From positions 31,128-95,127 of the forward strand of contig JAXGOY010000001.1 of assembly GCA_040767225.1 (NCBI GenBank): a stretch of 64,000 nucleotides of DNA, read 5' to 3'. A model generated the notes under the pieces. It had not been told where the DNA came from and searched no databases. It worked only from the letters and a program-made list of their open reading frames with translations. Positions 23,822-64,000 of the stretch are shown one piece after another. The position numbers were made by a program, and so were the translations under genes. Every line of letters starts with the position of its first letter. Positions within the stretch are counted from its first letter, which is position 1. Source of the DNA: Candidatus Dojkabacteria bacterium (GTDB taxonomy: Bacteria > Patescibacteriota > Dojkabacteria > SC72).

Positions 23822-24121
23822 TCAATCATTTTTATCTTCTTCTCCTGATTTAAACCCCTCTACAATTCCAGATATTACACTTGCAACTGCGGAAATCCCA
23901 TGCAATGCACCTGTGATTTGTAACACAGGAGTCTTAACGGTATCAATAATCCGATTAACTTCAGAAACAATATTATTAATATCCTCTACAGCTTTGTTCA
24001 CCCCTTTTATAGAATCTCTAGACTCTTTAAGAAGCATTGCTAATTGATACAAAACATAACATACAAAAACTACTAATATTCCAACAATTAGCATCCAAAA
24101 TATAGCAGGTATTTCTTCCAT
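23822..24121 (-). CDS. Small membrane protein (N-terminal TM plus helical domain; DUF948-like), first gene of the operon
   Basis: 99 aa, TM IFWMLIVGILVVFVCYVLY. An AT-rich divergent intergenic region lies upstream at 24122-24204. Confidence 0.45.
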   Translation of the reverse strand: MEEIPAIFWMLIVGILVVFVCYVLYQLAMLLKESRDSIKGVNKAVEDINNIVSEVNRIIDTVKTPVLQITGALHGISAVASVISGIVEGFKSGEEDKND

Positions 24122-24204
24122 CTTTTTATCTCTTAAATTTAAAATATATTACAATTATCGTTATTTTTAATGGTATATGTCAAGTTAAATGATATAATTA
24201 CAGA

Positions 24205-46299: not shown

Positions 46300-46346
46300 T
46301 ATATAGTATCCTTTTGTATTGTAAATATAATATAATTACCCATATT

Positions 46347-48170
46347 ATGGGTAATACAGATTTAAATAAAATAAGAAATTTCTCAATAATTGCACATATA
46401 GATCATGGGAAATCTACACTAGCAGACAGGATATTAGAGTTGTGCAATGTTAATATATCCAGAGATAAAAGAAAGTCTAGAATACTTGATAGATTAGAGT
46501 TAGAACAAGAGAAAGGAATTACAATAAAACTTCAAGCATGTACAATGAACTGGAATGGATATGAACTCAATCTCATAGATACCCCTGGGCATGTTGATTT
46601 CTCATATGAAGTATCACGCTCACTTGCTGCATGCGAAGGAGCAATACTTCTTGTTGATGCTTCTCAAGGTATACAGGCACAAACAATATCAAATGCACAA
46701 AAAGCAATGGAGCTAGGATTAAAATTAATCCCTGCAATAAACAAAATAGATTTACCCAATATAAATATAAAAGAAAGAGAAGATGAACTTGTACAACTTC
46801 TTGGTTTTAAAAGAGAAGATATTCTTAAAGTATCAGGAAAAACAGGAGAGGGTGTAAAAGAGTTACTTGATGCAGTAATTGAGAAATGCCCTCCTCCAAA
46901 GGGTGATTCTAACAAACCACTTAAAGCATTAATATTTGACTCTTTTTATGATGAACATAAAGGAGTGGTCGTCGCTGTAAGAATATTTGATGGGGAAATA
47001 AAGTACATTCCAAACAAAACCAAAGAGCTGTATATCCTTCAGATGAAAACATCCTTTAAACCAACAGAAATAGGAATATTTACTCCAACTATGAAAGAAA
47101 CAAATGAACTATGTGCTGGAGATGTGGGGTATATTGCTACTGGATTTAAAGATATAACAATGTTTACAGTAGGAGATACAATATCAGATAGCATGAATAC
47201 ACTACCACTTCCAGGGTATAAAGTACCAAAACCAAATGTATATGCTACTTTCTTTCCTACTGATATTGACCAGTACGAATCTTTAAAAATAGGATTAAGC
47301 AAATTAAGTATGAATGATGCTGCACTTACATTCTCTGAACAAAGATCCAATCTTCTTGGTACAGGGTTTAGATGTGGATTCTTAGGTCTTCTACATATGG
47401 AAATAATACAAGAAAGATTAGAAGAGGAGTACGATGTAAGTTTAATAATTACAGCACCAACAGTAGAGTATAAAGTGATAAAGACAGATGGTACAAAAAT
47501 TGACATACAGACACCACAAGAATTACCAGACCCCTCTGAAATTACTCAAATACTTGAACCATGGGTAAGACTTAAAATCATGACACCAAGTAAATACATG
47601 GGGGCAATAATGGAAATGTGCCAATACAAAAGAGGAGAGTATGTCAATACAACATATCTACCTACTTTCTCAGACAAAATACAAACAAAAGATCAGTATA
47701 TCATCCTAGAATATGATATCCCTCTAGCATCATTAGTATCCAATTTTTTTGATATGCTAAAAAACAAATCAAGCGGATATGCCTCTATGGAGTATGAGTT
47801 TATAGATTTCTTCCCAGTAGACCTTGTTAAAGTTTCAATACTTGTTAACCATGAGGAAATTCCAGCATTAAGTTTTCTTGAGACAAAAGAGAATGCACAA
47901 ACAAAAGCAGCAAAACTACTAGAAGTTATGAAAGAAGAAATACCAAGACAACAGTTCCCTATTCCTCTTCAAGCAGCAATAGGAGGTAAAATAATAGCAA
48001 GAGAGGATGTGAAAGGATACAGAAAAGATGTTACTGCTAAACTGTATGGAGGAGACTATACAAGAAAATTAAAACTTCTTGAAAAACAAAAGAAAGGTAA
48101 AAAAAGATTAAAACAGATAGGACAAGTAAATATTCCTCAAGAAGCATTTTTAAGTATATTGAAAATATAA
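46347..48170 (+). CDS. lepA: Elongation factor 4 (LepA)
   Basis: NFSIIAHIDHGKSTLADRIL...[16 protein letters not shown] plus the LepA C-terminal domain. The internal ATG at 46347 was used. Confidence 0.93.
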   Translation: MGNTDLNKIRNFSIIAHIDHGKSTLADRILELCNVNISRDKRKSRILDRLELEQEKGITIKLQACTMNWNGYELNLIDTPGHVDFSYEVSRSLAACEGAILLVDASQGIQAQTISNAQKAMELGLKLIPAINKIDLPNINIKEREDELVQLLGFKREDILKVSGKTGEGVKELLDAVIEKCPPPKGDSNKPLKALIFDSFYDEHKGVVVAVRIFDGEIKYIPNKTKELYILQMKTSFKPTEIGIFTPTMKETNELCAGDVGYIATGFKDITMFTVGDTISDSMNTLPLPGYKVPKPNVYATFFPTDIDQYESLKIGLSKLSMNDAALTFSEQRSNLLGTGFRCGFLGLLHMEIIQERLEEEYDVSLIITAPTVEYKVIKTDGTKIDIQTPQELPDPSEITQILEPWVRLKIMTPSKYMGAIMEMCQYKRGEYVNTTYLPTFSDKIQTKDQYIILEYDIPLASLVSNFFDMLKNKSSGYASMEYEFIDFFPVDLVKVSILVNHEEIPALSFLETKENAQTKAAKLLEVMKEEIPRQQFPIPLQAAIGGKIIAREDVKGYRKDVTAKLYGGDYTRKLKLLEKQKKGKKRLKQIGQVNIPQEAFLSILKI

Positions 48171-49243
48171 TGATTGAAACATTAACACTTCAAAATTTTA
48201 GAAAGTTTAAAAACAAAACCTTTGAGTTTAATAAAAACACAGTTATTCTTTACGGTCATAATGCACAAGGTAAAAGCTCAGTACTTGAAGCTATATATCT
48301 AATCAGTACAGGAGTATCTCCATGGGCATCATCAAATGAGTATATTAACTTAAACCAAAATAGCCAGACACATGCACGTATAGAAACAATAGAAAATGGA
48401 AAATCATATGTATACTTTAAAAATAAAGATAAAAGAGTATTAAAAATAGAAGGGAAGAATACAAGTGCTAGAAAATTTTTTGAAAATAGGTCTGCAAATA
48501 TATTTAATCCCGAACAAATAGATCTGTTAATGATATCTCCTTCTGAAAGAAGAAACTTCCTTGATAATATAATATTAAAATATGACTATGAGTATGAAAC
48601 ACTTCTTAGAGATTTTCACAAAATATTAAGACAAAGAAATGCATATTTAAAAAAACTCTCAAAGCTCTTCTATGATAAAGGAATAATCGCCGTAAATGAC
48701 CCTCAGTTAAACTTTTGGAGTAATCATTTTTGCCTTACATCTGCACATATACTTAAGAGCAGAATACTTTTAACAAAAGAATTATCTCTAAATGAATATG
48801 AGGTAAAGTATAAAACAAAAATAGATTTTGATAAAAGAAAAATAAACAATGTTGAATATCTTAAAGAGTGTATAGAGAGAGATTTAGAGTCTAGTAAGAA
48901 GAGGGACATAGCAACAGGATATACAAATATAGGCCCGCATAGAGATGACTGGGATATATTTAATGATAAAGATATTAAGAAATTTGGGTCAAGAGGAGAG
49001 AAAAGGTTAGCAATAGGGAATTTAATCTTTGAAATACAGAATATTGTATACAGAAAGACATCAAGTTACCCTATCCTCCTTCTTGATGATATTGCTTCAG
49101 AATTAGATATAGTCAATATTAAAAAAATACTACCTAAGAAAATATTAAACAAACAACAGACCTTTATTACAACAATTGATTTTAAGCATTTACCAAAAGA
49201 AATTATAAAAGATGCACAATTAATACATCTAGATGAAAAGTAA
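48170..49243 (+). CDS. recF: DNA replication and repair protein RecF
   Basis: MIETLTLQNFRKFKNKTFEFNKNTVILYGHNAQGKSSVLEAIYL (Walker A), SMC-like signature and LLLDDIASELD Walker B. 357 aa. Confidence 0.85.
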   Translation: MIETLTLQNFRKFKNKTFEFNKNTVILYGHNAQGKSSVLEAIYLISTGVSPWASSNEYINLNQNSQTHARIETIENGKSYVYFKNKDKRVLKIEGKNTSARKFFENRSANIFNPEQIDLLMISPSERRNFLDNIILKYDYEYETLLRDFHKILRQRNAYLKKLSKLFYDKGIIAVNDPQLNFWSNHFCLTSAHILKSRILLTKELSLNEYEVKYKTKIDFDKRKINNVEYLKECIERDLESSKKRDIATGYTNIGPHRDDWDIFNDKDIKKFGSRGEKRLAIGNLIFEIQNIVYRKTSSYPILLLDDIASELDIVNIKKILPKKILNKQQTFITTIDFKHLPKEIIKDAQLIHLDEK

Positions 49244-49294
49244 TATAATATCTCCACTATTTCTTTTAATTCTGATAAACTAGATATACGGAAT

Positions 49295-50098
49295 ATGAGA
49301 CAGCATGCTATACCACAAAACATTTTAGATGTTGAATTTAAGATTTTTACTAAGTTCACACTTAAAGAATTTGCTTACTTAGGAATAGGTGTAGGCATAG
49401 GAGGAGTATTTTTGTACTTTACAACTAAGGGACAGTTCCCTGGTATTGTAGGTGTTCCCCTGTTTATTCTCTTCTCAAGCATAGGGGTGTTCTTTGCACT
49501 TGTTCCAATAAATGATCAGCCTGCTGACAAGTTCATATCTAATTTCTTCTATGCAGTTAATCGTCCTACTCAAAGGGTATGGCTTAACAAAGAGTTAAAA
49601 GATGAAAGAACTAAACCTGCAATACAACCTGAAAAGAAAAAACAAAAAATATTTGGGGGATCTAAAATTGATCAAACAGGACAGGAGGTATATACTGAAA
49701 GTTCAGAGAAGAAGCAACCTGTACAACAAACTGTAGAGCAAGTAATTCCTTCTGCACAAGTTTCTACTAATGAGAAAATAATAATAAATGAAGAAAATAT
49801 ATCTAAGTATCAATTTAAAATTCAAAGTGTAGATAAACTACCTGGAAATATTAATCTGTGGTTATGTACAAAAGACAATCAGCCTATTCCTAATGTCCAG
49901 ACATATTTAAAAGACAAAGATGGAAAACTCCTTTATGCAAACAAAACAGGAAAGAATGGATACTTTCTTACTAATAAGGAGTATCCTGAAGGAATATATA
50001 ATATTGAATTTGAAGGAGCACCCTTTACAATACCTCCCATAAGTATTGTACTTACAAAAAATATGGGTAAATTACCTTATAGAATAGAAGTAAAATAA
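49295..50098 (+). CDS. Two-TM membrane protein with C-terminal beta-sandwich; candidate VirB3/TcpE/PrgI-like T4SS component
   Basis: TM hairpin FAYLGIGVGIGGVFLYFTT / PLFILFSSIGVFFALVPI near the N-terminus. C-terminal KDGKLLYANKTGKNGYFLTNKEYPEGIYNIEFEG is carboxypeptidase-regulatory-like. Directly upstream of the VirB4 gene. Confidence 0.4.
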   Translation: MRQHAIPQNILDVEFKIFTKFTLKEFAYLGIGVGIGGVFLYFTTKGQFPGIVGVPLFILFSSIGVFFALVPINDQPADKFISNFFYAVNRPTQRVWLNKELKDERTKPAIQPEKKKQKIFGGSKIDQTGQEVYTESSEKKQPVQQTVEQVIPSAQVSTNEKIIINEENISKYQFKIQSVDKLPGNINLWLCTKDNQPIPNVQTYLKDKDGKLLYANKTGKNGYFLTNKEYPEGIYNIEFEGAPFTIPPISIVLTKNMGKLPYRIEVK

Positions 50099-50742
50099 TG
50101 GACGCAAATGCAAGAGCAAGAACAACAGCATCAACACAAGATCACCTTGAAATAAAGGATATTGTAGATGATTTAGTAATTACTAAAAGCGGAACTGTAG
50201 CAATGGTAATCCAAACATCAGCAATTAACTTTGATCTTTTAGCTGAATATGAGCAGGATAGTAAAATATTTGCATTTGCAGGACTTCTTAATTCTTTAAA
50301 CTTCCACATACAGATATTAATAAGAACAAGAAGAATAGATATTTCTAATTATGTAGACTATCTTAAAAATCAAGAGAAAGCCGATATGACACCAGGACTA
50401 AAAAAACAGCTAAACATATATACACAATTTATTCAGAGATTAATTATTGAAAATGATGTACTTGATAAAAACTTCTTTCTAGTTATCCCTTACAACCCTG
50501 GAGGAAGTATGCCTACTGCTAACATATTAAAATCCAAAAAGTCTAAACAAGAAATTGAACAGAATATGCAAATGAAACAGAGTCAACTTTTAGAAAAAGC
50601 AAAAATATTTCTCTTTCCTAAAAGAGACCATATACTCAAACAGCTAAATAGAATGGGTTTGGGAGGAAAACAGCTTACAACAAAAGAATTAATTACAGAG
50701 TTTTACACTATATATAATCCAGAAGAAGAAAGAGGAGAATAA
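50098..50742 (+). CDS. Soluble 214-aa protein, unknown function; N-terminal motif resembles the start of VirB4-family proteins
   Basis: HLEIKDIVDDLVITKSGTVAMVIQTSAINFDLLAE parallels the VirB4 N-terminal segment (DHIVLLEDGSIMSIARIDGVAFELEE). Ends 1 nt before the VirB4 ATG. Confidence 0.35.
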   Translation: MDANARARTTASTQDHLEIKDIVDDLVITKSGTVAMVIQTSAINFDLLAEYEQDSKIFAFAGLLNSLNFHIQILIRTRRIDISNYVDYLKNQEKADMTPGLKKQLNIYTQFIQRLIIENDVLDKNFFLVIPYNPGGSMPTANILKSKKSKQEIEQNMQMKQSQLLEKAKIFLFPKRDHILKQLNRMGLGGKQLTTKELITEFYTIYNPEEERGE

Positions 50743-50743
50743 T

Positions 50744-53149
50744 ATGGCAGAAGATAATAAATATCAATCAAAAACAATAGAAGAATTAAAAGAAAAGGAA
50801 AGCTCTCTTACTGAGAATAAGTTTGCCACATTTACACAGGATTTAGCTAAAGACTTAGAACAGATTCAAGAGAAAAAAAATAATGAAAATAATCAACTAA
50901 ACCAGAAAGAAAGATACAATGATCCTGTTGATGAAAAGAAAAAAGAGGTAAAAAAGAATCCAATCCTTAAATTCTTAGATAATTTTATTCCTGAAGAGCA
51001 GAAAACTAAATCTCAGACAGCTGCACAACAACAACCAGTAGAAAGCAAAGTTAGTGAAACTAAATATGAAGGTTTAACACTTCAAGATATAATAGCTCCA
51101 ATTGATATTGAAGTTGACTTTAATCATTTACAAATGGGTGATTACTACTTCAGGACTTTCTTCATTAGTGGGTATCCCAGATTTGTTGGTCCAAACTGGC
51201 TTTCTCCAATTATCAATTTTGAGCACTCCCTGCGAATAAGTACATTCTACTACCCTGTTGATTCTAAAATAATAATGGAAAAATTAAAGAAAAAGATTGC
51301 AGAAATGGAAGCAACAATATATACACAAATGGAAGAAAGAAAAGTTATTGATGCTTCTTTAAAGGTAGCTCTATCTGATGCCCAGCAGCTTCAAGATTCA
51401 ATTGCAGAGGGAACTGAGAAATTCTTTCATTTTGCTATGTATATAACAATATATGCACCTAATAAAGATTTACTTGAAAAATACAGTCGTAATGTAGTAT
51501 CTACTTTAGCTGCAATAGGGGTAACTGCAAAACCTGCAACACTTCAACAAGAGCCAGGCTTCATTAGTACACAGCCATTAGGATTAGACAAGCTGTATGT
51601 AACAAGAAATATGGATACAACCTCTCTTGCTACTACATTTCCATTTGTTACATCTGAACTTACAATGGATCATGGAATTATGTATGGAATAAATATGCAT
51701 AACAAGAGTCTAGTTATTTTTGATAGATTTGAACTTGAAAATGCTAATTCTGTTGTATTTGCAAAATCTGGAGCTGGTAAAAGCTATTTTGTAAAACTTG
51801 AAGCACTAAGAAGCTTAATGCTTGGAACTGATATTATCATTATAGACCCTGAAAGAGAGTATGAAGATCTTTCAAGAGCTGTAGGAGGTTCATATATATC
51901 CTTCTCACAAGACAAAGGGGATAAAATGAATCCATTTGAGCTCTCAGGAGTATATGAAGAAGGTGAAGATGAGTTAAGAATAAAGATACAATCTCTCATT
52001 GGATTCTTTAAGATAATGTTTGATGGACTAAGCAATACTGAAATATCTATACTTGATAGAGCATTAATTCTTACATACAGAGAAAAAGGTATAACATATG
52101 ATCCTGCAACACAAAAGAACCCTCCTCCTATGCTTGAAGATTTATATAAAGTATTAAAGGGAATGGCAGAAGAAGAAGCTCATGACATGGCAAGAAGAAT
52201 GGAAAGATTTATCATTGGAAGTGGTGCTGGTGTATTTAATGAGGCTACAAACTTTGAAATAAATAATTCTTTTACAGTATTTAGTGTAAGAGATCTTCAG
52301 GAAGAACTAAAACCTTTATCAATGTATCTTATGCTTGACTTTATATGGACTGTAATAAGAAAAGAAAAAAAGAGAAGACTTCTCATAGTTGATGAGGCAT
52401 GGTATATGATGCAAAGAAAAGATTCTGCAGAGTTTATGTACTCCATAGCTAAGAGAGCAAGAAAATACTACCTCGGACTTACAACAATAACACAAGATGT
52501 TGCAGACTTTATGCATAATGATTTAGGTAAAGCAATAATTCAAAATGCATCAATGTCTATGCTGATGATGCAAAGCCCTTCTGCTGTAGAAGCAATTCAA
52601 GAGGTATTTCATCTTTCTGATGGAGAAAAAGCTTTCTTGCTAAACTGTGAAAAAGGTCAAGGATTATTCTTTGCAGGTCAAAATCATGTAGCAATGCAGG
52701 TCATATCAAGTGTACAAGAGAACACCCTTATCACCTCAGATCCAAGAGAGCTTGAGAGAATGAGATTAATGGGTGAAAAAGAGAAAAGCATCGAAGAGCT
52801 TTCTGCAATATTTGAGCCTCCTGCAACTCAAATGTCTGTATCTACAGAAACACCAAAGAATAAAGATCTGATAGAAAGAGCTGTAGGAAAGAGAAAAGAA
52901 GATATTAAAGAAATAAAAGAAGAAAGGGAGAAATATCAAGAGGAGTTAAAGAAACGATTAGAAGAACAAGATAGACAACTAAACCCTGATAAATATAACT
53001 CACAAAAAAGTATGGGACAATTAATTGAAGAAAATACTGTTCCAGGGCAAGTAATGAAAGAGAGAAAAGAAATTCAAAAAGGTAAAATGCATATTACCCC
53101 ACAAGGAGTAGTATCTGATGAAAATGAACAACAACCAAAGCAACAATAA
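50744..53149 (+). CDS. VirB4/TrbE/CagE-family type IV secretion ATPase
   Basis: 801 aa. CagE_TrbE_VirB-like block (YYFRTFFISGYPRFVGPNWLSPII). Walker A VFAKSGAGKSYFVK. Walker B RRLLIVDEAWYMM. K/E/Q-rich N- and C-terminal tails. Confidence 0.7.
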   Translation: MAEDNKYQSKTIEELKEKESSLTENKFATFTQDLAKDLEQIQEKKNNENNQLNQKERYNDPVDEKKKEVKKNPILKFLDNFIPEEQKTKSQTAAQQQPVESKVSETKYEGLTLQDIIAPIDIEVDFNHLQMGDYYFRTFFISGYPRFVGPNWLSPIINFEHSLRISTFYYPVDSKIIMEKLKKKIAEMEATIYTQMEERKVIDASLKVALSDAQQLQDSIAEGTEKFFHFAMYITIYAPNKDLLEKYSRNVVSTLAAIGVTAKPATLQQEPGFISTQPLGLDKLYVTRNMDTTSLATTFPFVTSELTMDHGIMYGINMHNKSLVIFDRFELENANSVVFAKSGAGKSYFVKLEALRSLMLGTDIIIIDPEREYEDLSRAVGGSYISFSQDKGDKMNPFELSGVYEEGEDELRIKIQSLIGFFKIMFDGLSNTEISILDRALILTYREKGITYDPATQKNPPPMLEDLYKVLKGMAEEEAHDMARRMERFIIGSGAGVFNEATNFEINNSFTVFSVRDLQEELKPLSMYLMLDFIWTVIRKEKKRRLLIVDEAWYMMQRKDSAEFMYSIAKRARKYYLGLTTITQDVADFMHNDLGKAIIQNASMSMLMMQSPSAVEAIQEVFHLSDGEKAFLLNCEKGQGLFFAGQNHVAMQVISSVQENTLITSDPRELERMRLMGEKEKSIEELSAIFEPPATQMSVSTETPKNKDLIERAVGKRKEDIKEIKEEREKYQEELKKRLEEQDRQLNPDKYNSQKSMGQLIEENTVPGQVMKERKEIQKGKMHITPQGVVSDENEQQPKQQ

Positions 53150-53326
53150 CAAAACAATATATCAATATAATGTAACTGCTAATTCGGACATTAACTATAC
53201 TAATATTCCCAAGATGAATAACAATGGGAATGGTACCCCCAACCCTCCAATACAAAAACAACCGTTTGAACCTGCACTAAAGAGAGCACAGATGGCATTA
53301 AAGCTGGTAAATCCTTTTAAAGGTGT

Positions 53327-54445
53327 TTAACTTAAAGGACCTTGATCAGGAAGAACATACTGTTTGAGATTATCAGGTGTAATTACAATAGGAATACTCT
53401 TTCCACTCACAATTTCCCTTGCTGCACTTCTAAGTAGTGTTGCAATATTCCTTTCAAGCTGACGTATACCTGCATCAAAACCAACTGGTCTTATAATCAA
53501 AGGCCATACATCTTCAGATATTTGAATGTATTCAGGAGGCAATCCCATAGATGCTAATGTTCTAGGAAGTATATATGATTTAGCAATAATCTCTTTCTCT
53601 TGATCACTATAACTTGTAAAACGAATAACCTCGAGTCTATCAAGCAATGCAGCAGATAGCCCTCCTAAGTTATTTGCAGTACATATAAAGAATACTTGAG
53701 ATAAATCGACAGGATAGTCAATATAATGATCTACAAATGTAGAGTTTTGCTCAGGATCAAGTATCTCAAGCAGTGCAGCCATCATATCATTCTGAACACC
53801 TTTGTTCTGACTTGATTTTTCAATTTCATCTATAAGAATAACAGGATTCATAGTACCAGCTCTTACTAAAGACTTTATAATCTGCCCAGGTTCCGCATCA
53901 GGCTCATGTCTAGGAACACCTCTAAGTGTCCTTACATCTCCCACTGCCCCAAGAGATATTCTTGCAAACTTTCTTCCCATTGCTTTTGCTATTGATTGTG
54001 CAATAGATGTTTTTCCAACACCCTGAAGACCTACAAAAAGTAAAGTAGGTATTTGTGGTGAATTATCTGTAACATTTCCACCTCTAGCTCTTTGCATATT
54101 TTTCAATTGCATTACTGCAAGATAATCAAGAATCATCTCCTTTATAGTATCCATACCATAATGAGTAGAATCCATCATTCTTCTTGCATTTTCTATATCC
54201 AGATTATCCTTAGATACAACTCCCCATGGGATTCTTGTAATCCAATCAACATATTTATCTACACTCTCAAACTCAGAGCTATAATTACCAAGCCTAGCCA
54301 TTCTCTCAAGCCTTTGGATAGTTTTCATCGTCTGCTCTTTTAGCTCAATAGGGGCATTAGAAGATGCCAATTTATTCTGAAGCTCAACTATCTCAGACAT
54401 TACATTATCATTTACTGTTGTGTAATCCATATCAAAATATATCAC
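53327..54445 (-). CDS. Lon-type AAA+ ATPase module without a protease domain
   Basis: LLFVGLQGVGKTSIAQSIAKAMGRKFARISLGAVGDVRTLRGVPRHEPDAEPGQIIKSL...ILIDEIEKSS...LLEILDPEQN...LLDRLEVIRFTSYSDQEK aligns along the Lon ATPase. The protein ends where the S16 peptidase domain would begin. Confidence 0.7.
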   Translation of the reverse strand: MIYFDMDYTTVNDNVMSEIVELQNKLASSNAPIELKEQTMKTIQRLERMARLGNYSSEFESVDKYVDWITRIPWGVVSKDNLDIENARRMMDSTHYGMDTIKEMILDYLAVMQLKNMQRARGGNVTDNSPQIPTLLFVGLQGVGKTSIAQSIAKAMGRKFARISLGAVGDVRTLRGVPRHEPDAEPGQIIKSLVRAGTMNPVILIDEIEKSSQNKGVQNDMMAALLEILDPEQNSTFVDHYIDYPVDLSQVFFICTANNLGGLSAALLDRLEVIRFTSYSDQEKEIIAKSYILPRTLASMGLPPEYIQISEDVWPLIIRPVGFDAGIRQLERNIATLLRSAAREIVSGKSIPIVITPDNLKQYVLPDQGPLS

Positions 54446-54488
54446 ATATACTATGAGGATTCTTGACCTATAACATCAAATAACATAC

Positions 54489-55778
54489 TTACTTCAAACC
54501 ACTTAAAACAGCCTCCTTAACAGCATTAGCAGCATACTTCATATCAGACTCATTATTATATATTCCTAAACTAAATCTTAATGTAGGACCAATCTTAAAT
54601 CTATCATGCAGTGGTTGTGCACAATGGAAACCCTCTCTAAAACAAATTCTCTTTTTATTAAGTAAATCTACAATACCTTCTCCATCTTTCTTTGTTTGAA
54701 TACTTTCAACATCTTTACACCCTCTAAATCTGAAACCTTTTATAGTAAATGCAATACTCCCATATTTCTGAGAAATATCATCAGGACCAAAATGAACAAA
54801 CCAATCTATTCCATTAAACTCATTTAAAAAATACCCTATTAACCCCTGTTCATGATTAATTATCATATCCCATCCCCCAACCATATCAACACGACCCTTA
54901 AGCCACTCAATTGCAGCACCCAAACCAATTCCTCCTGCAATATCAGGAGTACCAGCCTCAAATCTCCATGGCAGTTCATTGTATTCAAAACCCTTTTTCG
55001 TAACTAAAGAAACCATCTCTCCACCACCCATCCATGGAACAAGGTCTTCAAGATATTTCATATTTACATACACAGCACCACTTCCTGTAGGCCCATACAC
55101 CTTATGTCCAGAAAATACTAATGCATCACAACCCAAACTTTTAACATCAACAGGTACTCTAGCAATGCTTTGTGCAGCATCAAGCATTGTAAAAGCATCT
55201 ACCTTCTTAGCAATCTTAAATATCTCCTCTACATCATTCTTAACACCCAATACATTTGAAATATGAACAACAGATACAATCTTTATCTTCTCCCCCTCCT
55301 TTTTAACTAAATCCTTAAACCAATTTAAATCTAATGTGTAATCATCTTTTACAGGTATATACTCTATTCTAAACTTTATCTCTTTTTGCAACAGCATCCA
55401 TGGAATAATATTACTGTGATGCTCCATCTCTGTAATTACAACAATATCCCCATCAGAAAGAAGCTTTCTTCCTACAGTATTAACAAGAAAATTTAATCCT
55501 TCGGTACTGTTTCTTACAAAAAATATCTCTTTATATGAATCTGAATTTATAAAATCAGAAACAGTTTCGTGAGCCTCTTGCCAAAGATTAGTAGCATTAA
55601 TAGAAAGGTCATATGGACCCCTATGAATATTAGCATTCTCCTGCTCATAATACTGATTAATCCTATCTATAACCTCTTGAGGTTTCTGAGTGGTAGCAGC
55701 ACTATCAAGATATACAAGTCCCTTACCTAAGAATTTATCTTTTAGAATAGGGAACTCTTTTCTAATATCTTCAAACAT
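54489..55778 (-). CDS. sufS: Cysteine desulfurase (SufS/CsdA-like class V aminotransferase)
   Basis: 429 aa, PLP-Lys block ALVFSGHKVYGPTGSGAVYV and the RFEAGTPDIAGGIGLGAAIEWL motif. Confidence 0.8.
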   Translation of the reverse strand: MFEDIRKEFPILKDKFLGKGLVYLDSAATTQKPQEVIDRINQYYEQENANIHRGPYDLSINATNLWQEAHETVSDFINSDSYKEIFFVRNSTEGLNFLVNTVGRKLLSDGDIVVITEMEHHSNIIPWMLLQKEIKFRIEYIPVKDDYTLDLNWFKDLVKKEGEKIKIVSVVHISNVLGVKNDVEEIFKIAKKVDAFTMLDAAQSIARVPVDVKSLGCDALVFSGHKVYGPTGSGAVYVNMKYLEDLVPWMGGGEMVSLVTKKGFEYNELPWRFEAGTPDIAGGIGLGAAIEWLKGRVDMVGGWDMIINHEQGLIGYFLNEFNGIDWFVHFGPDDISQKYGSIAFTIKGFRFRGCKDVESIQTKKDGEGIVDLLNKKRICFREGFHCAQPLHDRFKIGPTLRFSLGIYNNESDMKYAANAVKEAVLSGLK

Positions 55779-55797
55779 ATTAATTACATTGTTTAAT

Positions 55798-56385
55798 TTA
55801 AAAATTCTTCCATATTTTACTCGCTTGTACTGTCAAATCACCAACATACTTACTATTTAAACTTTTACTACCATATGGCTTCTCGCAAGGAGTATCAAGC
55901 TCCTCAAAAGCAATTTGTGCAATCTTCATACCTACATATATTCTAATAGGAAGAGGAGAAAGATTAACCATTTCTAGTGTTAATCTTAATTTGTTTCCTG
56001 GATCTAAAAATCCAGCAGTAGCATGTATAATTAACCCTATTCTTGCAAGAGAGCTCTTTCCTTCAAGTCTTCCAACATGTTTACTATCTACTCCCGTTAT
56101 CTCAATGACATTAGCAAGTACAAGCTGGTGTGGTTCTATTACAAATCCGCTATCACTTATCTGTGTTCTAATCATTAATTCATCAACAGGTTTCTTAACA
56201 TCAATAATATTATTTCCATTAGTATTAAAATACATAATATTTTTATCAAGATGTAAATCATATGATGCAGGCTGAAGACTATCTTGTGAGAATGGAGATA
56301 TACTTATCTCTCCTGTATTAATTTTTTCCTTAATGCTTTTATCAGAAAGTATCATATTTAAAACTTTTAATTTAACTCCTATCAA
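55798..56385 (-). CDS. dcd: dCTP deaminase
   Basis: 195 aa, dUTPase-fold motifs (GFLDPGNKLRLTLEMVN, IYVGMKIAQIAFE). Confidence 0.8.
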   Translation of the reverse strand: MIGVKLKVLNMILSDKSIKEKINTGEISISPFSQDSLQPASYDLHLDKNIMYFNTNGNNIIDVKKPVDELMIRTQISDSGFVIEPHQLVLANVIEITGVDSKHVGRLEGKSSLARIGLIIHATAGFLDPGNKLRLTLEMVNLSPLPIRIYVGMKIAQIAFEELDTPCEKPYGSKSLNSKYVGDLTVQASKIWKNF

Positions 56386-57966
56386 TAAACTGATCTCTTG
56401 ATGCAGGATCAGGCATTTCTATTTTTCTTAGTAAAGGATACCATATACTATCATTACTATTTAATAACTCTAACCATTTGTATACTAGTGCTCTGTATGC
56501 AATATGACCTCCTCTTGCACTTCGCAAACTAATTGTATACTGCAGGTCATCAATAGAAGCATAGAAACAGTATCTAGTTGCATGAGCATGAGGAAGAAGA
56601 TATTTAGTAAACTCCTGAGAGTACTCCTCGGACACAACTTTAAGTGAATCATTTCTCCATCTCTTTATCATATTATATGTTCCTATTAAAGCTTTCTCAT
56701 ACTCTTTCTTTAATTCGGACATCTCAGGTATATCAAGATAATTACATAGGAAGAAGCAATCCTTGCTATCTCTGTTTAACTCATTATCAATATCTATCTC
56801 ATCATGTAAAAGTGGTATAAATCTCTCAAAACTCCTATGTCTATTTAAATCTTTTAATGTACATAATGCAGACATACCCTCTATCTTAATTGAACCACTC
56901 TGTCCAAGATTGCCTATAAGGTTGTGCTGATTATGATTCTTAAAAAGAACTTCACCAATATATTCAGAATCTTCATCATCAAATTCAAGCTCATTCTCAC
57001 TACCCAATGGATTTATTAATAGCTCATAATGAGTAAAAAGGTCTTCTACTGCATTATCGTTATAACTAACAGTACATGAATCACTCTCACTTCCTTTATT
57101 AATATATTGCCTTTGTGCTGAAACCTTTTTCCTAAGATACTCTAGTATCTCTTTGGTAGAGTCCTTTCTTGAATAATTAGCCTCAGTGTGCCTTACAAGA
57201 CCATCAGCTTCCCTAATATACCCATCTATATTTACATCAGAATCTCCAAGCAAGTTATATATCAACTTTCCCACCTCTCTATCTACAATACTATCCCCTG
57301 CATTAAGATATGATATTAACTCAGACCAGTTTCTTGCAGACATGACTGCTGCCATACTTGTCTGCACTCCATATGGAAGAAGGTATCTTGCACAATCAAA
57401 ACTTCTTGCCTGTAATGCAGATTTTTCTTCTTTAATATCCTCATTAATATTAAAATACTCCTTAAATATCTCCTTTGTCTTTTTTAACAAAACAGAGTAA
57501 TCATCCATCTGTTTTAAGATTATATTTTCATACTCTTTCCTAATCTCTTGGTTATTACAAATCTCCTTAGGAATTTTAATATACTTAGGTTCTTCAAAAT
57601 TCTGATATCTTGTAGACCTTTCCTGACCTGATATTACAGAATTAAGATAGAATATTTTCATTGCAGAAAGCATTGGAATATTTTCAATACATACAAAGAG
57701 CTGAGCCATATCACCTACAGATTTATGACCATATCCATGAAATATCGCTTCTAGTCTTTGTGCAGCATCAGTATTATTCTTAATAATTTCAGATGCAATA
57801 TCAATTACACTATCAGAAGATTACTGTATCTTGCACCTAAATATGCATTGATAGAGGGCTGTTTTTGATTAACATTCTCAAGAAGAGTACGAACCTTAAA
57901 CTGATTCCAGTCAGCTTCAGACTCTATACTTGCTATTTGTATATCTTTTCTAAATGTACCTTTCAT
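56372..57966 (-). pseudogene. thyX: Long two-lobed flavin-dependent thymidylate synthase (ThyX-like) interrupted by one frameshift
   Basis: ORF 56372-57709 (open to 57820) carries FHGYGHKSVGDMAQLFVCIEN, ARSFDCARYLLPYGVQT...SARNWSELISYL, RHR in LNRHRSFERF and LPHAHATRYCFYASIDDLQYTISLRSARGGHIAYRAL. A separate 53-codon ORF 57805-57966 (MKGTFRKDIQ...INAYLGARYSNLLIV*) encodes the ThyX N-terminus in another frame. The gene is flanked by dcd and glyA. Confidence 0.55.
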
Positions 57967-59200
57967 ATTCCTGTATATTAAAATCCTTACTAAAATCTCT
58001 CACCTCATCTTTAATTCTCTTAAGATTATCCTCAGAGCTATCATTTAGTGCCCTGTATATATACTCTGAGATTTGGAACATATCTTTTTCTTTCATACCT
58101 CTTGTAGTAACAGCAGCACTCCCTATCCTTACACCTGAAGGATCCCATGGTTTTCTTTCATCAAATGGTATTGCATTTTTGTTTAATGTAATATTTACAG
58201 ATTCTAGAATATCAGAAACCTCTTTACCACTCTTTCCTATACTCTTAATCGTATCTACTAAAAACATATGATTATCAGTACCACCAGATACAATATTAAA
58301 CCCTTTATCTGCTAAAGAAGATGCCAAAGTTTTTGCATTACTAATTACTTGTTTTGCATATTCCTTAAACTCATTACTTTGAGCTTCTTTTAAGGCAACA
58401 GCTATGCCTGCTGTAATATGATTATGAGGACCTCCTTGAAGCCCTGGAAATACTGCCTTATCTATTAACTCTCCATACTCTTCCTTGCACATAATTATAG
58501 CTCCTCTTGGACCTCTGAGAGTTTTATGAGTAGTTGTTGTAACTACATCTGCAATACCTACAGGAGAAGGATACAGTCCTGCTGCAACAAGTCCTGCAAC
58601 ATGTGCTATGTCAGCAACAAGTATTGCACCAACCTCATCAGCAATCTTTCTAAATTCATTCCAATCAACTATTCTTGAATATGCACTAAACCCGCTCCAT
58701 ATGAGTTTTGGTTTATGCTCCAGAGCTATTCTTCTTACATCATCATAATCAATATATCCCTCTTTATTTACACCATAACTTACTGAATCAAAATATTTCC
58801 CACTTATAGATACCTTAAAACCATGTGTAAGATGCCCTCCTGCTGAAAGATCCATTCCCATTGTTCTATCTCCTGGTTTAAGGAATGCAAAGTGTACAGC
58901 TAAATTAGCAGGAGAGCCAGAATATGGCTGAACGTTTACATGTTCTGCACCAAAAAGTTCTTTTGCTCTATTAATACATTCTTCTTCTATTTTATCAATA
59001 TACTCATTACCACCATAATATCTTTTATGTGGATATCCTTCTGAGTATTTGTTTGTAAGTATACTCCCCATTGCTTTAAGTACATCTTCACTTACATAAT
59101 TCTCAGAAGCGATAAGCTCTATTCCTTCTTTCTGTCTTTTAGATTCCTCTTGTATATATTCAAATATTTCATCTTTATACATTTCTTTTATACATCTCAA
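57950..59200 (-). CDS. glyA: Serine hydroxymethyltransferase
   Basis: 416 aa. YSGSPANLAVHFAFLKPGDRTMGMDLSAGGHLTHG, and PLP-Lys TTTTHKTLRGPRG. Confidence 0.95.
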   Translation of the reverse strand: MRCIKEMYKDEIFEYIQEESKRQKEGIELIASENYVSEDVLKAMGSILTNKYSEGYPHKRYYGGNEYIDKIEEECINRAKELFGAEHVNVQPYSGSPANLAVHFAFLKPGDRTMGMDLSAGGHLTHGFKVSISGKYFDSVSYGVNKEGYIDYDDVRRIALEHKPKLIWSGFSAYSRIVDWNEFRKIADEVGAILVADIAHVAGLVAAGLYPSPVGIADVVTTTTHKTLRGPRGAIIMCKEEYGELIDKAVFPGLQGGPHNHITAGIAVALKEAQSNEFKEYAKQVISNAKTLASSLADKGFNIVSGGTDNHMFLVDTIKSIGKSGKEVSDILESVNITLNKNAIPFDERKPWDPSGVRIGSAAVTTRGMKEKDMFQISEYIYRALNDSSEDNLKRIKDEVRDFSKDFNIQEYERYI

Positions 59201-60022
59201 TTAAATTATCAAACAAACATGCTATTGTCATAGGACCAACTCCTCCAGGAACTGGAGTAATATATCCTACGATATCTTTTACACTATTAAAATCAACATC
59301 TCCCACTAACTTACCCTCACTATTTCTATTTGTTCCAACATCAATTACAATACTTCCATTTTTAACATATTCAGAATTAATATATTCAGCCCTTCCTATA
59401 CTTGATACTAATATATCTGCATCTTTACATATATCTTTTAGTTCTTGTGTATGTGAATGACATATGGTTACAGTAGCATTTCTTGTTTTGAAGCATTGCT
59501 GCAATGGGTAGTCCTGATATATCTCCTCTACCAATAACAACTGCTCTTTTCCCTTCAATTTGTATATCATAGTTATCCAACAATTTAATTACTCCTTTAG
59601 CAGTAGCAGGTGGTATTGCAGATGAATCATTTTAAATAGTTTTCCTAAATTAGTAGATGTAAGTCCATCAACATCTTTAGAAGGGAGTATACTTTCTAAT
59701 ACTTCACTTTCGTTAATATGCTCAGGCATTGGTAGTTGTACCATAATTCCATCAACTTCATTCTCATTATTAAGCTCTTTATGAGTTTAATTAATTGAGC
59801 CTGTGAAATGTCTTTATCAAATGTATGTATATTTACTAATATTCCTAAATCTAATGCTTTTTTCTCTTTCATATTTACATACATCTGACTAGCATAATCA
59901 TCTCCTACAAGCATTATATCTATTCTTGGTGCTCTTTTACCTTCTTGAAGATATTTCTGGATTTCTGTTTTTAGATTCTGTAACATCACAGATGATGTAT
60001 ATTTACCGTCTAATATTTCCAT
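59175..60022 (-). pseudogene. folD: Methylenetetrahydrofolate dehydrogenase/cyclohydrolase FolD, disrupted by three +/-1 frameshifts
   Basis: N-terminal fragment 59696-60022 (ILDGKYTSSVMLQNLKTEIQ...IMLVGDDYASQMYV). Continuous FolD sequence (NNENEVDGIMVQLPMPEHINESEVLESILPSKDVDGLTSTNLGKLFK / NDSSAIPPATAKGVIKLLDNYDIQIEGKRAVVIGRGDISGLPIAAMLQNK / NATVTICHSHTQELK...VGTNR...PVPGGVGPMT) is recovered only by shifting frame near 59785, 59650 and 59495, each at an A-run. Confidence 0.7.
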
Positions 60023-60052
60023 TTATGTATATTTAAAATTATTCTATGTATT

Positions 60053-60732
60053 TTACTCCATATCTCTTACTGCTGTAACTATACCCCTTCTTGTATTTGA
60101 TCCTACAGGCCAGCATGTCATTAAAGTAAGAGTGTCCTGATCCATATATTTACCTAAATATTTTATCTCCTCTGGTTTAACTACCTTAAACTCTACCACC
60201 TTGTATTTATATATCTTTCCTTCATAGCTTACATATATCTGATCCTCTTTCTCTAACTCTCTAAAAGATAGAAGTAGACATTGTATTTTCTTCTTTCATA
60301 GAAATTAACAGTAGAGTGTGCAAAAAGAAATACATTACCATGTTCATCTGGTAGTGCAGACCCTTTTGCATGTGCTACTCCATATACAAGTGCATTTCTA
60401 TATTCCTCAAAGTTATTAATATCCACATTCTTTATTACCTTTGCATTTGCTTTTATCTTAGGAATATATATTCCAAAATCACTGTTTACAAATACAATCT
60501 CTGTATCTTCATCTATCTTCTCAGTGATATTTTGTTCATTTTCTGTAATTTCTACTTTAATTTCCTTAGGTGGTTTAGGTGAAAAACGATAATCAAAATA
60601 TGATGACAAAAATGGCTGATATGTAAAAAACAGTATAATTAATCCAACAAGGAGAAGCAGGATACCTGTGTATTTCAGGTATCCTGTTTTTTTCTTTTTA
60701 CTTTTTTCTTCTGATGTAGTTGTAGATTCCAC
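60053..60732 (-). pseudogene. Second sortase gene, interrupted by a frameshift
   Basis: N-terminal ORF 60253-60732 (TM, ...VYGVAHAKGSALPDEHGNVFLFAHSTVNFYERRKYNVYF). The C-terminal part, in the -1 frame to a stop at 60053, reads SFRELEKEDQIYVSYEGKIYKYKVVEFKVVKPEEIKYLGKYMDQDTLTLMTCWPVGSNTRRGIVTAVRDME. The shift lies in ttctatctttt. Confidence 0.65.
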
Positions 60733-61711
60733 TTCCTAATACTACCACAATTAGTGATATAATGAGATATTTGTATTTATCCCATATACTTTCTTCTGTT
60801 TCTTTTTCTTCTGTTTTAGTTTCGTCTTTCGTATCAGTTTCTACTTCCTCTTCCTGTTGTGCAGTAGTCTCTTCCCCTGCTACTTCTCCTGTACTAGTTG
60901 TTTCCTGCTCCTGCTGTGTAGTGGTTTCTTCTCCTGCTACTTCTTCACTTTCCTGTGATGTTGATGTCTGTGTCTGTTCTACAACTGTAACAACATTATC
61001 AGTAACCAGAGCAGATACATTGCTGTACTCATCTACTGCTCTTACTGCATAGTAATATTCTTTTGAGCAGTCAGCTGGTGTATCAGTATATGTTGATAAT
61101 GCATTTGGTGTAACAGTAAGATATGGTTTTGTAATTAGTGTTGTATCATCTGCATAGAATGATTTCTGATTATCAGATCTAAATATCTGTACTTTTGATG
61201 TTGATGATTTGAATTTCAGAGTATATGTACATACTGTTTTCTCTTTTGAATATTCTGTTACTGGAGATGGTTTGTCTGCTACTTTTACAGTAACTACTTC
61301 TGATTCTGCTCCTTCTCCATCAGTAGTTGATGCTATGGCTTTAAAGTAGTATGTTCCACTTCCTGTAACTATACTTTGATCTACCTTACAATCTCCACTG
61401 TTTGTTGTTTTAGATATATCAAAATTAGAGAAGTTTACTCCATCAAGAGAGTACTGACATTGTACAGTTATTGGTTTTACTGGTATTGAGAGTGCTACAT
61501 ATGTAATATTAAACTCTCTATCAGTTATACCTATTTTAGGTTCTTCTAATCTAACACTTACTTTTGCAGTAGTTTGAGCATATGTTTGAACTGGTTTAAG
61601 TAGTGTAAATATACCAATAGCAAATACAAAAGTTATTACTAAGATACTTGTTTTTCTCTTTTTAAAGAATAGTAAGAAGATTCCTAATATCATAGATATT
61701 AATGCTCCCAA
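60698..61711 (-). CDS. Surface protein with FN3-like beta domains, acidic T/E-rich repeat region and C-terminal TM anchor
   Basis: TTG/ATG start region MGALISMILGIFLLFFKKRKTSILVITFVFAIGIFTLLKPVQTYAQT (signal-like). C-terminal ...EESIWDKYKYLIISLIVVVLGSGIYNYIRRKK. The reading frame stays open upstream to 61846. Confidence 0.5.
   Translation of the reverse strand: MGALISMILGIFLLFFKKRKTSILVITFVFAIGIFTLLKPVQTYAQTTAKVSVRLEEPKIGITDREFNITYVALSIPVKPITVQCQYSLDGVNFSNFDISKTTNSGDCKVDQSIVTGSGTYYFKAIASTTDGEGAESEVVTVKVADKPSPVTEYSKEKTVCTYTLKFKSSTSKVQIFRSDNQKSFYADDTTLITKPYLTVTPNALSTYTDTPADCSKEYYYAVRAVDEYSNVSALVTDNVVTVVEQTQTSTSQESEEVAGEETTTQQEQETTSTGEVAGEETTAQQEEEVETDTKDETKTEEKETEESIWDKYKYLIISLIVVVLGSGIYNYIRRKK
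60845..60960 (-). repeat. Imperfect tandem duplication (about 57 nt) encoding EVAGEETT(T/A)QQE repeats
   Basis: Copies at 60845-60901 and 60902-60960 (ttcctg(t/c)t(g/c)...ctcttc(c/t)cctgctacttc). Confidence 0.5.
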
Positions 61712-61903
61712 TGTTATATATGTTTCTGCACCTGTTTTGGGTAATATAAGAGTAGTGGATGCTCCTAATACTTCTCCTCCATCTTCTATTGGTTCTATTA
61801 CTAATACTTTTGTTCCTACAAAGTTGTCTCCCAGTATTCTGTATTAACATCTTCTGATTAGTGCATAACTGATTCCTAAGTACATCTCCACTATCTTTCT
61901 CTG

Positions 61904-64000
61904 CTAGTAAGGAGAATCTCCTTGTACAAATGCAATATCTTTGTAAAGGCCTGGTTCATTAAGAAGGTTTATTTTAGCAGTATATGTTAATGTTACTATT
62001 TCTCCTTCTTTCATATCTCCTAGATTCCAAGTTGCTAGTCCTTCATTGTATTCAGGTTCTGTAGTAATACTTCCTTTGATATTTCCTCTTACAGATGAGT
62101 TAGCTGTCCATGTACCAGACATATATTCAAATCCTTTTGGTAATATATCTGTTACTTTTACATTTTTAATTAGATATGTTCCTTTTTCTTCATTAGATGG
62201 TGCAGTTACTATTATTGTATACAGAACTGTACTTCCAGTTAGTAATCCGTCAATAGGGCTATCATTGTCTTTAGTTATTTTTAATTGTGAAGGAATTGCA
62301 TAGTTACCAAAGTTATATTCTAGACCAACTACAAAATTAGTTGACTGATCTCGATCTGACGGCTTCTCTGGCAACTGTATAATGTGACAGTTATCATCTT
62401 CATTAATTGGATAACTCTGGTTCCATCCTTCCTTTTGGACCTCACATACTTTGTATGTACCTGGGAACAGATGGTCAAACCAATACCATCCAAAATGAGT
62501 TTCTGTATCATCTGTATCCATACTCTTTAGAGGTGTTTCATCGAATCCTTCTTCATTCCCTTTATAGAGATTTATTGTCCAACCTGAAAGTAGTGGTTCC
62601 TCATCAGTTAATCCATCCATATCTATATCATTCCATTTATATCCATGTACAACCCCATTAGGAGTGTTATAGAAGGTACATATTGTATTACTATCTTTAC
62701 TTACATCAACAGAATACATAGTATATCCATCCAACGAACCGTTATTAATTCCACAATTCGCACCAACTATTTCATATCCAAGTTCAACATTTTCTTTAAC
62801 ATCGTAAGTACCTGTTTTAAGTTCAGAAAATACAATCTTTCCATTAAGGAAATCCGTTTTAGAAGATGAGGGATTACTTGTATCATTACTCACTCCGTCT
62901 ACATCAAATTCCCAATTTATACCCATGATTTGATCACCTGTTGTTGTTAAATCTCCGTCTTCATCTATTACTTTGTATACTGTTAGAGATCCAGTATCTC
63001 TTGTATTGGTGAATGTACATGTAATAGTTTCTCCTGCATCTAATTCAAGACTTTCAGCAGTTTCATTATCATTTATTGAACTAATACAACTTGTATTTGT
63101 TAATTCCCAACCAGAAGTAGTTAATTCTTCAATTGAGTATGAGCCTGGTGCTAACCATCCACTATCTATTGATTGATCATTTATTAGGAAGAAATTATCT
63201 CCCCAACTTGAATCAAATTCAAAGGCTTGTTGACTTTGGTCTGGCAAGGTTGTTAATTTCTCAACTATTATTTTTCCACCCTCTAATTCGACAGTAGCAT
63301 CATCTGTATCTGTATCAATAGATCCATCATTATCTGTTGCGGTAGCTGTTACCACATCAGTATAAAAACCAGGGTTACCGTTAACTGCTCCTGTAAATGT
63401 ACATGTATATATTCCTCCGTTAGCAGGAATAGTACCACCAGTAGCACAAGTATCTCGTCCATTTAGATTTCCATATATATTATCTGTTAAAGTTGTTAAT
63501 GTTACTGATTCTTTACTATTGTTTGTAACTACAACTGTAAACAAGACATCTCCACCAGGTACTGATAAAACAAGTGTACCAGCTGTCTTAGTTACTAAAA
63601 TTGTTGGTAATACATTACTAAAGTCTACTGTCGCATCATCTGTGTCTACTGCTTCTGTTTCATCATTGTCTACTGCCTTTCCTGTAAAGACATTAACATG
63701 ATCTGGTCCTGTATAATCTCCCTCCACCCACTTTGTAATACTAAAATCACATGTCGCTCCTGATGCTAATACTGTTCCTACTTTACAATCAGCATCTCCT
63801 GATAAAGTACCATATACACTATCACTTAGACTTTTAATTGTTACTGACTCCTCACTTGATGTGTTCTTAACTGTAAAGGTAAAGGTTACATTGCCTCCTG
63901 TCTCGGGGATTGCTGTTGGATTGGCTGTCTTAGTTACTTCAATTGTTGGTAATACATTACTAAAGTCTACTGTTGCATCATCTGTGTCTACTGCTTCTGT
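61904..64000 (-). CDS. Large surface protein with tandem DUF11-type repeat domains (3' part; gene continues beyond window end)
   Basis: Open on the minus strand from the window end to a TAG at 61904-61906. Contains a repeated 115-aa unit (TEAVDTDDATVDFSNVLPTI(L/E)VTKTA...V.N.S.ESV.L..L.D..YG.L.G...C...G.I.A.G...C.F) and beta-rich modules. No sorting signal precedes the stop. Confidence 0.7.
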   Translation of the reverse strand, partial: TEAVDTDDATVDFSNVLPTIEVTKTANPTAIPETGGNVTFTFTVKNTSSEESVTIKSLSDSVYGTLSGDADCKVGTVLASGATCDFSITKWVEGDYTGPDHVNVFTGKAVDNDETEAVDTDDATVDFSNVLPTILVTKTAGTLVLSVPGGDVLFTVVVTNNSKESVTLTTLTDNIYGNLNGRDTCATGGTIPANGGIYTCTFTGAVNGNPGFYTDVVTATATDNDGSIDTDTDDATVELEGGKIIVEKLTTLPDQSQQAFEFDSSWGDNFFLINDQSIDSGWLAPGSYSIEELTTSGWELTNTSCISSINDNETAESLELDAGETITCTFTNTRDTGSLTVYKVIDEDGDLTTTGDQIMGINWEFDVDGVSNDTSNPSSSKTDFLNGKIVFSELKTGTYDVKENVELGYEIVGANCGINNGSLDGYTMYSVDVSKDSNTICTFYNTPNGVVHGYKWNDIDMDGLTDEEPLLSGWTINLYKGNEEGFDETPLKSMDTDDTETHFGWYWFDHLFPGTYKVCEVQKEGWNQSYPINEDDNCHIIQLPEKPSDRDQSTNFVVGLEYNFGNYAIPSQLKITKDNDSPIDGLLTGSTVLYTIIVTAPSNEEKGTYLIKNVKVTDILPKGFEYMSGTWTANSSVRGNIKGSITTEPEYNEGLATWNLGDMKEGEIVTLTYTAKINLLNEPGLYKDIAFVQGDSPY
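63250..64000 (-). repeat. Tandem 345-nt coding repeats (DUF11-like domain units)
   Basis: actaaagtctactgt(c/t)gcatcatctgtgtctactgcttctgt recurs at 63615-63660 and 63961-64000. A third copy at the protein level lies near 63270-63340. Confidence 0.6.

Follow-up and report, generated by a model that had tools for sequence, protein, structure and literature searches.

A dense patch of small frame-changing indels in the folate-thymidylate and sortase locus of a Dojkabacteria contig, very probably a local consensus artefact

We examined a stretch of 64,000 nucleotides (nt; hereafter the window) from a member of the Dojkabacteria (WS6, candidate phyla radiation or CPR; GC content about 33 %), in which a first-pass annotation had reported a local pile-up of disrupted genes involving thyX, folD, a sortase and its surface-protein substrate. 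The minus strand between 54.4 and 64 kb carries, in this order, genes for a Lon-like AAA+ protein, SufS, Dcd, ThyX, GlyA, FolD, a sortase and a large LPXTG surface protein, and the folD-glyA-thyX-dcd-sufS-lonAAA operon was found again at about 28 related loci in metagenome-assembled genomes (MAGs). Using comparisons with these relatives we show that small frame-changing indels are confined to a single patch of this locus and absent from the relatives, and that the affected genes bear the signature of purifying selection. We propose that the pile-up very probably arose as a local error of consensus building or polishing at a locus that varies between strains, and is not biology.

The indel patch and the genes it crosses

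As the reference for indels we used L082, an ENA metaSPAdes contig built from short reads at 4x coverage, which aligns with the window over 12.2 kb (50061-62287) at 97.35 % identity. Three further independent assemblies were compared: L001, an NCBI MAG (91.5 % nt identity, aligned window span 47973-60056); L081, a Logan contig (SRR19237648; 92.4 % identity, 46378-60056); and L083, a 1.6 kb JGI sequence (92.3 % nt identity, 59653-60881). Alignment to L082 revealed exactly 11 frame-changing indels in the window, each of 1-2 nt and all situated between 57821 and 61908: one in thyX, one in the last codons of glyA, three in folD, one in the spacer between folD and the sortase gene, one in the sortase gene and four in a linker of the surface protein. 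These 4,088 nt, touching five genes and one spacer, straddle a break in synteny at 60056 and lie inside a tract that diverges between strains.

The thyX gene (56372..57966, minus strand) encodes the 531-aa form of the enzyme found in Dojkabacteria, with matches to the Pfam domain Thy1, and has lost a single nucleotide at 57821, the G of an AGA (AGTAGATCT -> AGTA-ATCT), within the conserved ARYSRS motif. Three-frame translation accordingly yields two pieces, 57966-57805 and 57820-56372. This 531-aa length is about twice that usual for ThyX, with Thy1 covering two stretches of the protein, and a protein search showed it to be invariant, all of the more than 100 cluster representatives being 531 aa long. 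Upstream, glyA (SHMT; 57950..59182, minus strand) has lost 1 nt at 57972 (CC->C) and is otherwise intact. This deletion alters the last three codons (...DFNIPGI followed by a stop becomes ...DFNIQEYERYI followed by a stop), shifts the stop codon to 57950 from its place near 57963 and abolishes the usual ATGA overlap of the glyA stop with the thyX start.

The 849-bp folD gene (59175..60022, minus strand) would encode 282 aa when corrected, and is interrupted by a -1 event at 59780 (TT->T), another at 59629 (A5->A4) and a +1 event at 59479 (AA->AAA), so that three-frame translation gives four pieces (60022-59696, 59786-59589, 59631-59425 and 59588-59175). In the spacer between folD and the sortase gene (60023..60052, minus strand), about position 60041, 2 nt are missing relative to L082 and L083, and 1 nt relative to L001 and L081. 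The sortase gene (60053..60732, minus strand; 226-227 aa when corrected) has lost one nucleotide at 60260 (GG->G; TTAGGAGA -> TTAG-AGA), and is read in the two pieces 60735-60253 and 60295-60053.

The sortase-substrate gene (60698..64000, minus strand) runs past the end of the window and is one continuous open reading frame (ORF) in relatives. Its linker (61830..61915, minus strand) is hit by four small indels in the space of some 75 nt: +2 at 61908 (a TC dinucleotide), +1 at 61881 (an isolated A gained), +1 at 61863 (possibly in an A/T run) and -1 at 61837. Together they create a TAG at 61906-61904 and a TAA at 61846-61844, ahead of the LPKTG signal at 61744-61730. The linker of relatives reads GDSLLAEKDSGD(V/I)LGISYDPSEYLHTD(T/K)LG(D/N)NFVGT, and to follow this homology (to L002, L005 and proteins P0130/P0122) through the window one has to change frames in the order 1->0->1->2->1, the successive segments being GDS / LLAEKDSGDVL / GISYAL / SEDVNTE / ILGDNFVGT. 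The four indels add up to a multiple of three, and the 380 codons downstream stay open. An alternative genetic code was considered as an explanation for the two stops and rejected, as TAG or TAA normally end 64 of the 66 long ORFs of the window, and the switching of frames by the homology across the stops likewise speaks against it.

The frameshifts that the first-pass annotation had noticed in thyX (one), folD (three) and the second sortase (one) were thus all recovered, with coordinates no more than about 20 nt from where alignment puts the indels. Its two in-frame stops before LPKTG are also present, but they are the product of the four linker indels and not point nonsense mutations; these four, together with the spacer indel at 60041 and that in the glyA tail, are lesions beyond its count. 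It had placed every frameshift at an A or T homopolymer, which proved wrong: this holds for only about four of the ten coding indels (59479, 59629, 59780 and possibly 61863), and the remainder include the changes at 57972, 60260 and 57821.

Frame-changing indels are absent from the remaining 7.7 kb of the L082 alignment (50061-57820), as they are from 46378-57820 in the comparison with L081, and none is apparent across the remaining ~50 kb of the window. All other indels relative to L082, L081 and L001 are harmless, being multiples of 3 nt (four such 3-nt events lie within the surface gene), one locally compensated pair (57113/57108) or intergenic. Outside the patch the window is covered end to end by long ORFs, and the neighbouring ORF pairs that had been suspected as splits (RuvX, YceG, RsmE, RsmB and S15) are separate, complete genes with full Pfam coverage. 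The frameshift in the glyA tail is an exception to the earlier view that every other recognizable gene of the window is intact. By our own arithmetic the chance of all 11 indels falling within 4.09 kb of the 12.2 kb is (0.335)^11, or about 6e-6, which puts the clustering well outside what chance would give. The indels form one unbroken patch that halts in mid-operon; dcd and sufS are clean, and so is the surface gene over its N-terminal 2 kb. Unrelated functions are struck alike: thymidylate (dTMP) and folate genes, the glyA tail, the spacer, the sortase and the linker of the surface protein.

Intactness in relatives and selection on the broken genes

The comparison with the orthologous region of relatives, which the first-pass annotation had proposed, showed the genes to be intact in L001, L081, L082 and L083 at every comparable lesion site. 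Full-length ORFs return once the 11 indels are undone: no stops are left in thyX, folD, the sortase gene or glyA, and none in the surface gene given an alternative placement of the indel at 61863. The broken genes contain neither nonsense substitutions nor large deletions, their lesions consisting of small indels only. Corrected FolD covers its Pfam domains end to end (THF_DHG_CYH 1-115/115; THF_DHG_CYH_C 2-159/160), and nearly all of the approximately 28 related MAG loci encode FolD (282 aa) and ThyX (531 aa) each in a single frame; about 25 Dojkabacteria loci more distant than the four assemblies above thus have the genes intact. The corrected sortase spans positions 1-124/125 of the Pfam domain Sortase and retains its catalytic residues, namely the histidine in LFAHS, the cysteine in TLMTCWP and the arginine.

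Measured against L001, folD has a ratio of nonsynonymous to synonymous divergence (dN/dS) of 0.147 and thyX one of 0.098, the range for intact genes being 0.037-0.143 (dcd, 0.143); measured against L082, the corresponding pN/pS is 0.14 for the sortase, 0.20 for folD, 0.10 for thyX and 0.05 for glyA. Codon changes on the lineage of the window in folD and thyX number 23 nonsynonymous (N) to 70 synonymous (S), as against 42 N to 100 S in the intact copies of L001 and L081 (Fisher p = 0.46), the expectation under neutral evolution being roughly 4 N to 1 S. When amino-acid changes were polarized with 6-9 outgroups, folD showed 10 on the window branch and 12 on that of L001, and thyX 27 and 20 respectively; those specific to the window are conservative and seldom fall at invariant sites. 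A drift of dN/dS towards 1 on the disrupted lineage, indicating relaxed selection, was tested for and not found. Since the window-specific ratio of N to S is not raised and the changes are conservative, the broken genes have been under purifying selection for essentially the whole of their lineage. Substitution-type sequencing errors within the patch were also considered and rejected, the mismatches to L082 being mainly synonymous.

The start of the sortase gene differs among relatives: where L002, L003, L005, L006, L008 and L009 share a conserved ATG (M-S-E-E-K), the window (60714-60732) and L082 (2020-2040) both have ACA (Thr). Translation likely starts at a GTG six codons upstream, though an AGGA box lies only about 2 nt away from it. 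We considered the loss of the ATG as a sign of decay and rejected it, the intact gene of L082 sharing the ACA codon. In the case of thyX, the gene is missing from L022, where dcd directly follows glyA (junction at L022 11182), and in L020 (4335-5348) only ThyX residues 1-81 and 310-531 are matched. Thus, thyX seems to be dispensable or decaying in some Dojkabacteria, as judged from these two loci.

A strain-divergent tract and the explanations for the patch

The density of mismatches to L082 is 0-1.4 % at 50-56 kb, rises to 1.8-5.8 % at 56-61.5 kb and reaches 13 % at 61.5-62 kb. In the divergent tract, which starts at about 56000 and reaches at least to 62287, synonymous sites diverge from L082 by 0.06-0.17, that is 4-10x the values in the flanks (0.015-0.037 for dcd, sufS and lonAAA). 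On these figures the window and L082 are taken to be conspecific, with different, putatively recombinant, alleles of the tract, which resembles a homologous-recombination tract around a surface-protein locus. Homology to L001 and L081 stops exactly at 60056, where these relatives carry a gene for an ABC transporter in place of the sortase/surface island (the replacement occupies 6052-7943 in L081). The island is present in the window, in L082 and in the more distant L002, L003, L005, L006, L008 and L009, and lost in the close relatives L001 and L081. L001 (7580-9160) additionally has a 451-aa ORF, a GNAT gene and a ~180-nt remnant of the sortase 3'-end (8961-9114). The indel patch extends 2.2 kb to one side of the 60056 boundary and 1.9 kb to the other. 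No significant repeats, insertion sequence elements or inverted repeats were found in 55-64 kb except for tandem domain repeats inside the surface gene.

A strain-variable locus in a MAG is a classic site of local assembly errors (PMC7111523), and gene-fragmenting errors of the indel type are characteristic of long-read consensus (PMC12007338, PMC8011154). The patch falls where conspecific strains differ most, in a putative recombinant tract abutting an island that is present or absent among close relatives; here reads from mixed strains, a drop in coverage or an assembly bubble traversed at low depth could have left 1-2-nt indels uncorrected. We infer consensus error at a strain-variable locus as the cause, and likewise the sequencing platform. 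This reading is favoured because four independent assemblies are intact, correction restores the proteins, the genes are under purifying selection and the patch takes no account of function. None of the lesions recurs in the independently assembled close relatives, the genes otherwise look functional (full length when corrected, with catalytic residues and purifying selection), and the errors are contiguous irrespective of gene function and boundaries, with none in the adjacent 7.7-11.4 kb. Indels unaccompanied by a phase of neutral substitution, three of them in 849 bp and four within 75 nt, are moreover not how pseudogenes accumulate, and the last of these groupings is not plausible as a mutational history. 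The underlying genome therefore most likely carries intact thyX, glyA, folD and sortase genes and a single fused LPXTG surface gene. Where the first-pass annotation had left poor polishing and gene decay as alternatives, poor polishing is now favoured and decay is not; the loss of dTMP and one-carbon folate capacity and of a sortase-substrate pair, which it had drawn from decay, is not supported, with relatives intact and no relaxed selection.

Several points weigh against an artefact. It is an inference rather than a read-level observation, and no second assembly of the strain came to light when contigs encoding exactly its GlyA (from either of two start codons), SufS, EF-Tu, a 595-aa protein or P0121 were looked up. 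The closest relative, L082 (97.4 % identical), itself differs in the tract, which leaves room for real mutations specific to the strain. Pooled amino-acid changes lean weakly to the window branch (37:32 in folD and thyX versus 31:53 in intact genes), a lean that is not seen in the codon-level N/S test. The sister lineages L001 and L081 have truly shed the island, and among distant relatives L022 lacks thyX and L020 has only a partial copy, so that loss of these genes is biologically possible.

The last of these points is also what can be said for genuine and very recent pseudogenization, by which thyX, folD, the sortase and its substrate would have been lost through real indels in the course of a CPR-style reduction, with thymidine and folate products salvaged from a host. 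The deletion of the island in the nearest sisters, with the ~180-nt sortase remnant kept by L001, the state of thyX in L022 and L020, and the occurrence of some of the indels in short A/T runs of a 33 % GC genome all fit such a process. Clusters of pseudogenes are known from reductive genomes such as those of Mycobacterium leprae, Rickettsia and insect endosymbionts, and the resemblance lies in neighbouring metabolic genes being frameshifted in a small, AT-rich genome of the symbiont type. Real pseudogenes, however, are said to add nonsynonymous and nonsense substitutions and deletions that are common to strains, none of which is seen here: ten independent coding indels would have arisen in 4.1 kb with no nonsense mutation, larger deletion or rise in N/S, and there are no lost starts either, the ACA start being common to the intact L082. 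Recent decay would further have to account for the density of indels in folD and the linker, and for a disregard of pathway boundaries in which a glyA tail and a spacer are struck and dcd is spared. L082, conspecific in the flanks (0-1.4 % mismatch), has none of the lesions, although no assembly of the identical strain was there for comparison. We therefore regard recent decay as distinctly unlikely. A compromise, in which the sortase and surface lesions are real decay of an island being shed and those of thyX, glyA and folD are consensus errors, could draw on the loss of the island in L001 and L081, on the rapid evolution of surface-protein linkers and on the 13 % divergence at 61.5-62 kb, but type and density of lesions are alike over the whole patch. 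The sortase also keeps its His/Cys/Arg residues and a pN/pS of 0.14, the net length change of the four linker indels is divisible by three and leaves an open frame downstream, and the ATG->ACA change is shared with an intact gene, all of which makes such a division very unlikely.

It is more improbable still that a single recent burst of real mutation confined to a recombination tract caused the indels, for instance through highly error-prone repair synthesis during the import of a divergent allele beside the island; if it did, thymidylate synthesis, folate interconversion and a sortase with its substrate would have been inactivated at once in a salvage-dependent CPR symbiont. Lastly, the genes could be expressed in spite of the breaks through ribosomal frameshifting or transcriptional slippage. 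Tamas et al. are said to have described (PNAS, 2008) frameshifts in poly(A) tracts being rescued by slippage in AT-rich endosymbionts, and indels in A runs of an AT-rich, reduced genome are a point of likeness. That slippage reportedly needs about 9 or more A, whereas here the runs are 2-5 nt or there is none, several sites not being runs at all, and the orthologues lack such tracts. As the orthologues in about 30 relatives are single-frame at every site, with neither shift site nor slippery motif conserved, and as the contexts are heterogeneous, programmed recoding is effectively excluded; recoding at ten sites spread over five genes would be without precedent.

The favoured artefact itself has partial parallels among known assembly errors. 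Those of long-read and hybrid assemblies (Kastor, PMC12007338; Homopolish, PMC8011154) are similarly 1-2-nt indels that make conserved genes look like pseudogenes, and are found and 'repaired' by comparing close relatives, but they are usually genome-wide and at longer homopolymers, whereas here there is one 4.1-kb patch with about 40 % of the indels in short A/T runs. Local errors in MAGs (Chen et al. 2020, PMC7111523) are alike in consisting of a short consensus, probably unsupported by reads, that gives wrong proteins in a CPR MAG, at a place of strain divergence and an island boundary; they are normally single spots, and here 11 spots are spread over 4 kb. Taken at face value, the patch would lead to the false inference of an organism with no dTMP synthesis, no FolD and one sortase-substrate pair fewer, and if unrecognized it would burden databases with false pseudogenes and with truncated proteins such as the 331-aa P0121. 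The finding is biologically ordinary, and 56-62 kb of the source contig should be flagged for re-polishing.

The fused surface protein and neighbouring genes

The LPxTG substrate is a single ORF in L002 (6532-8451), L003, L005, L006, L009 and L082 (3-2057), as well as in the proteins P0122, P0124, P0127 and P0130, and in none of the relatives compared is there a stop between its two halves. The first half consists of SpaA/SdrD-B/DUF11 domains followed by (G)EVLGAS..LPxTG, a hydrophobic transmembrane segment and KKRK. This is followed by a second, signal-peptide-like transmembrane segment (TYA|Q), a module of ~300 aa, an acidic low-complexity stretch and a C-terminal transmembrane segment with RRKK. 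A sorting signal in the middle of a polypeptide, with a signal-like segment and a second anchored module after it, is unusual, and this architecture is suggestive of a polyprotein whose processing involves sortase and perhaps signal peptidase as well. Searches of the literature on sortases and LPXTG proteins of the CPR and on pseudogenes of Dojkabacteria returned nothing relevant. The internal-LPXTG substrate may be more interesting than the indel patch itself. Database proteins of 331-336 aa (P0121, P0123, P0125 and P0126) are probably the tail of such surface proteins called from an internal ATG; P0121 is the 331-aa tail of the surface gene of the window, and was called from there because of the breaks upstream.

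At the other end of the array, the Lon-like protein (53327-54445, minus strand; 372 aa) has AAA+ and Lon lid domains without a protease domain. Its size and position are kept in relatives (371 aa in L001, 366 aa in L081), and it is therefore not a truncation artefact. The operon is adjoined by a type-IV-secretion-like gene set on the plus strand (46314-53149), syntenic in L081 and L001, which comprises a VirB4/TraG-type ATPase (801 aa) and PrgI-like, TraC-like and SMC_N/AAA_23 proteins. Across the 66 long ORFs of the window the stop codons used are TAA (52), TAG (12) and TGA (1; 23822-24148). TGA is a real terminator in relatives, where it closes the glyA genes of L001 and L082.

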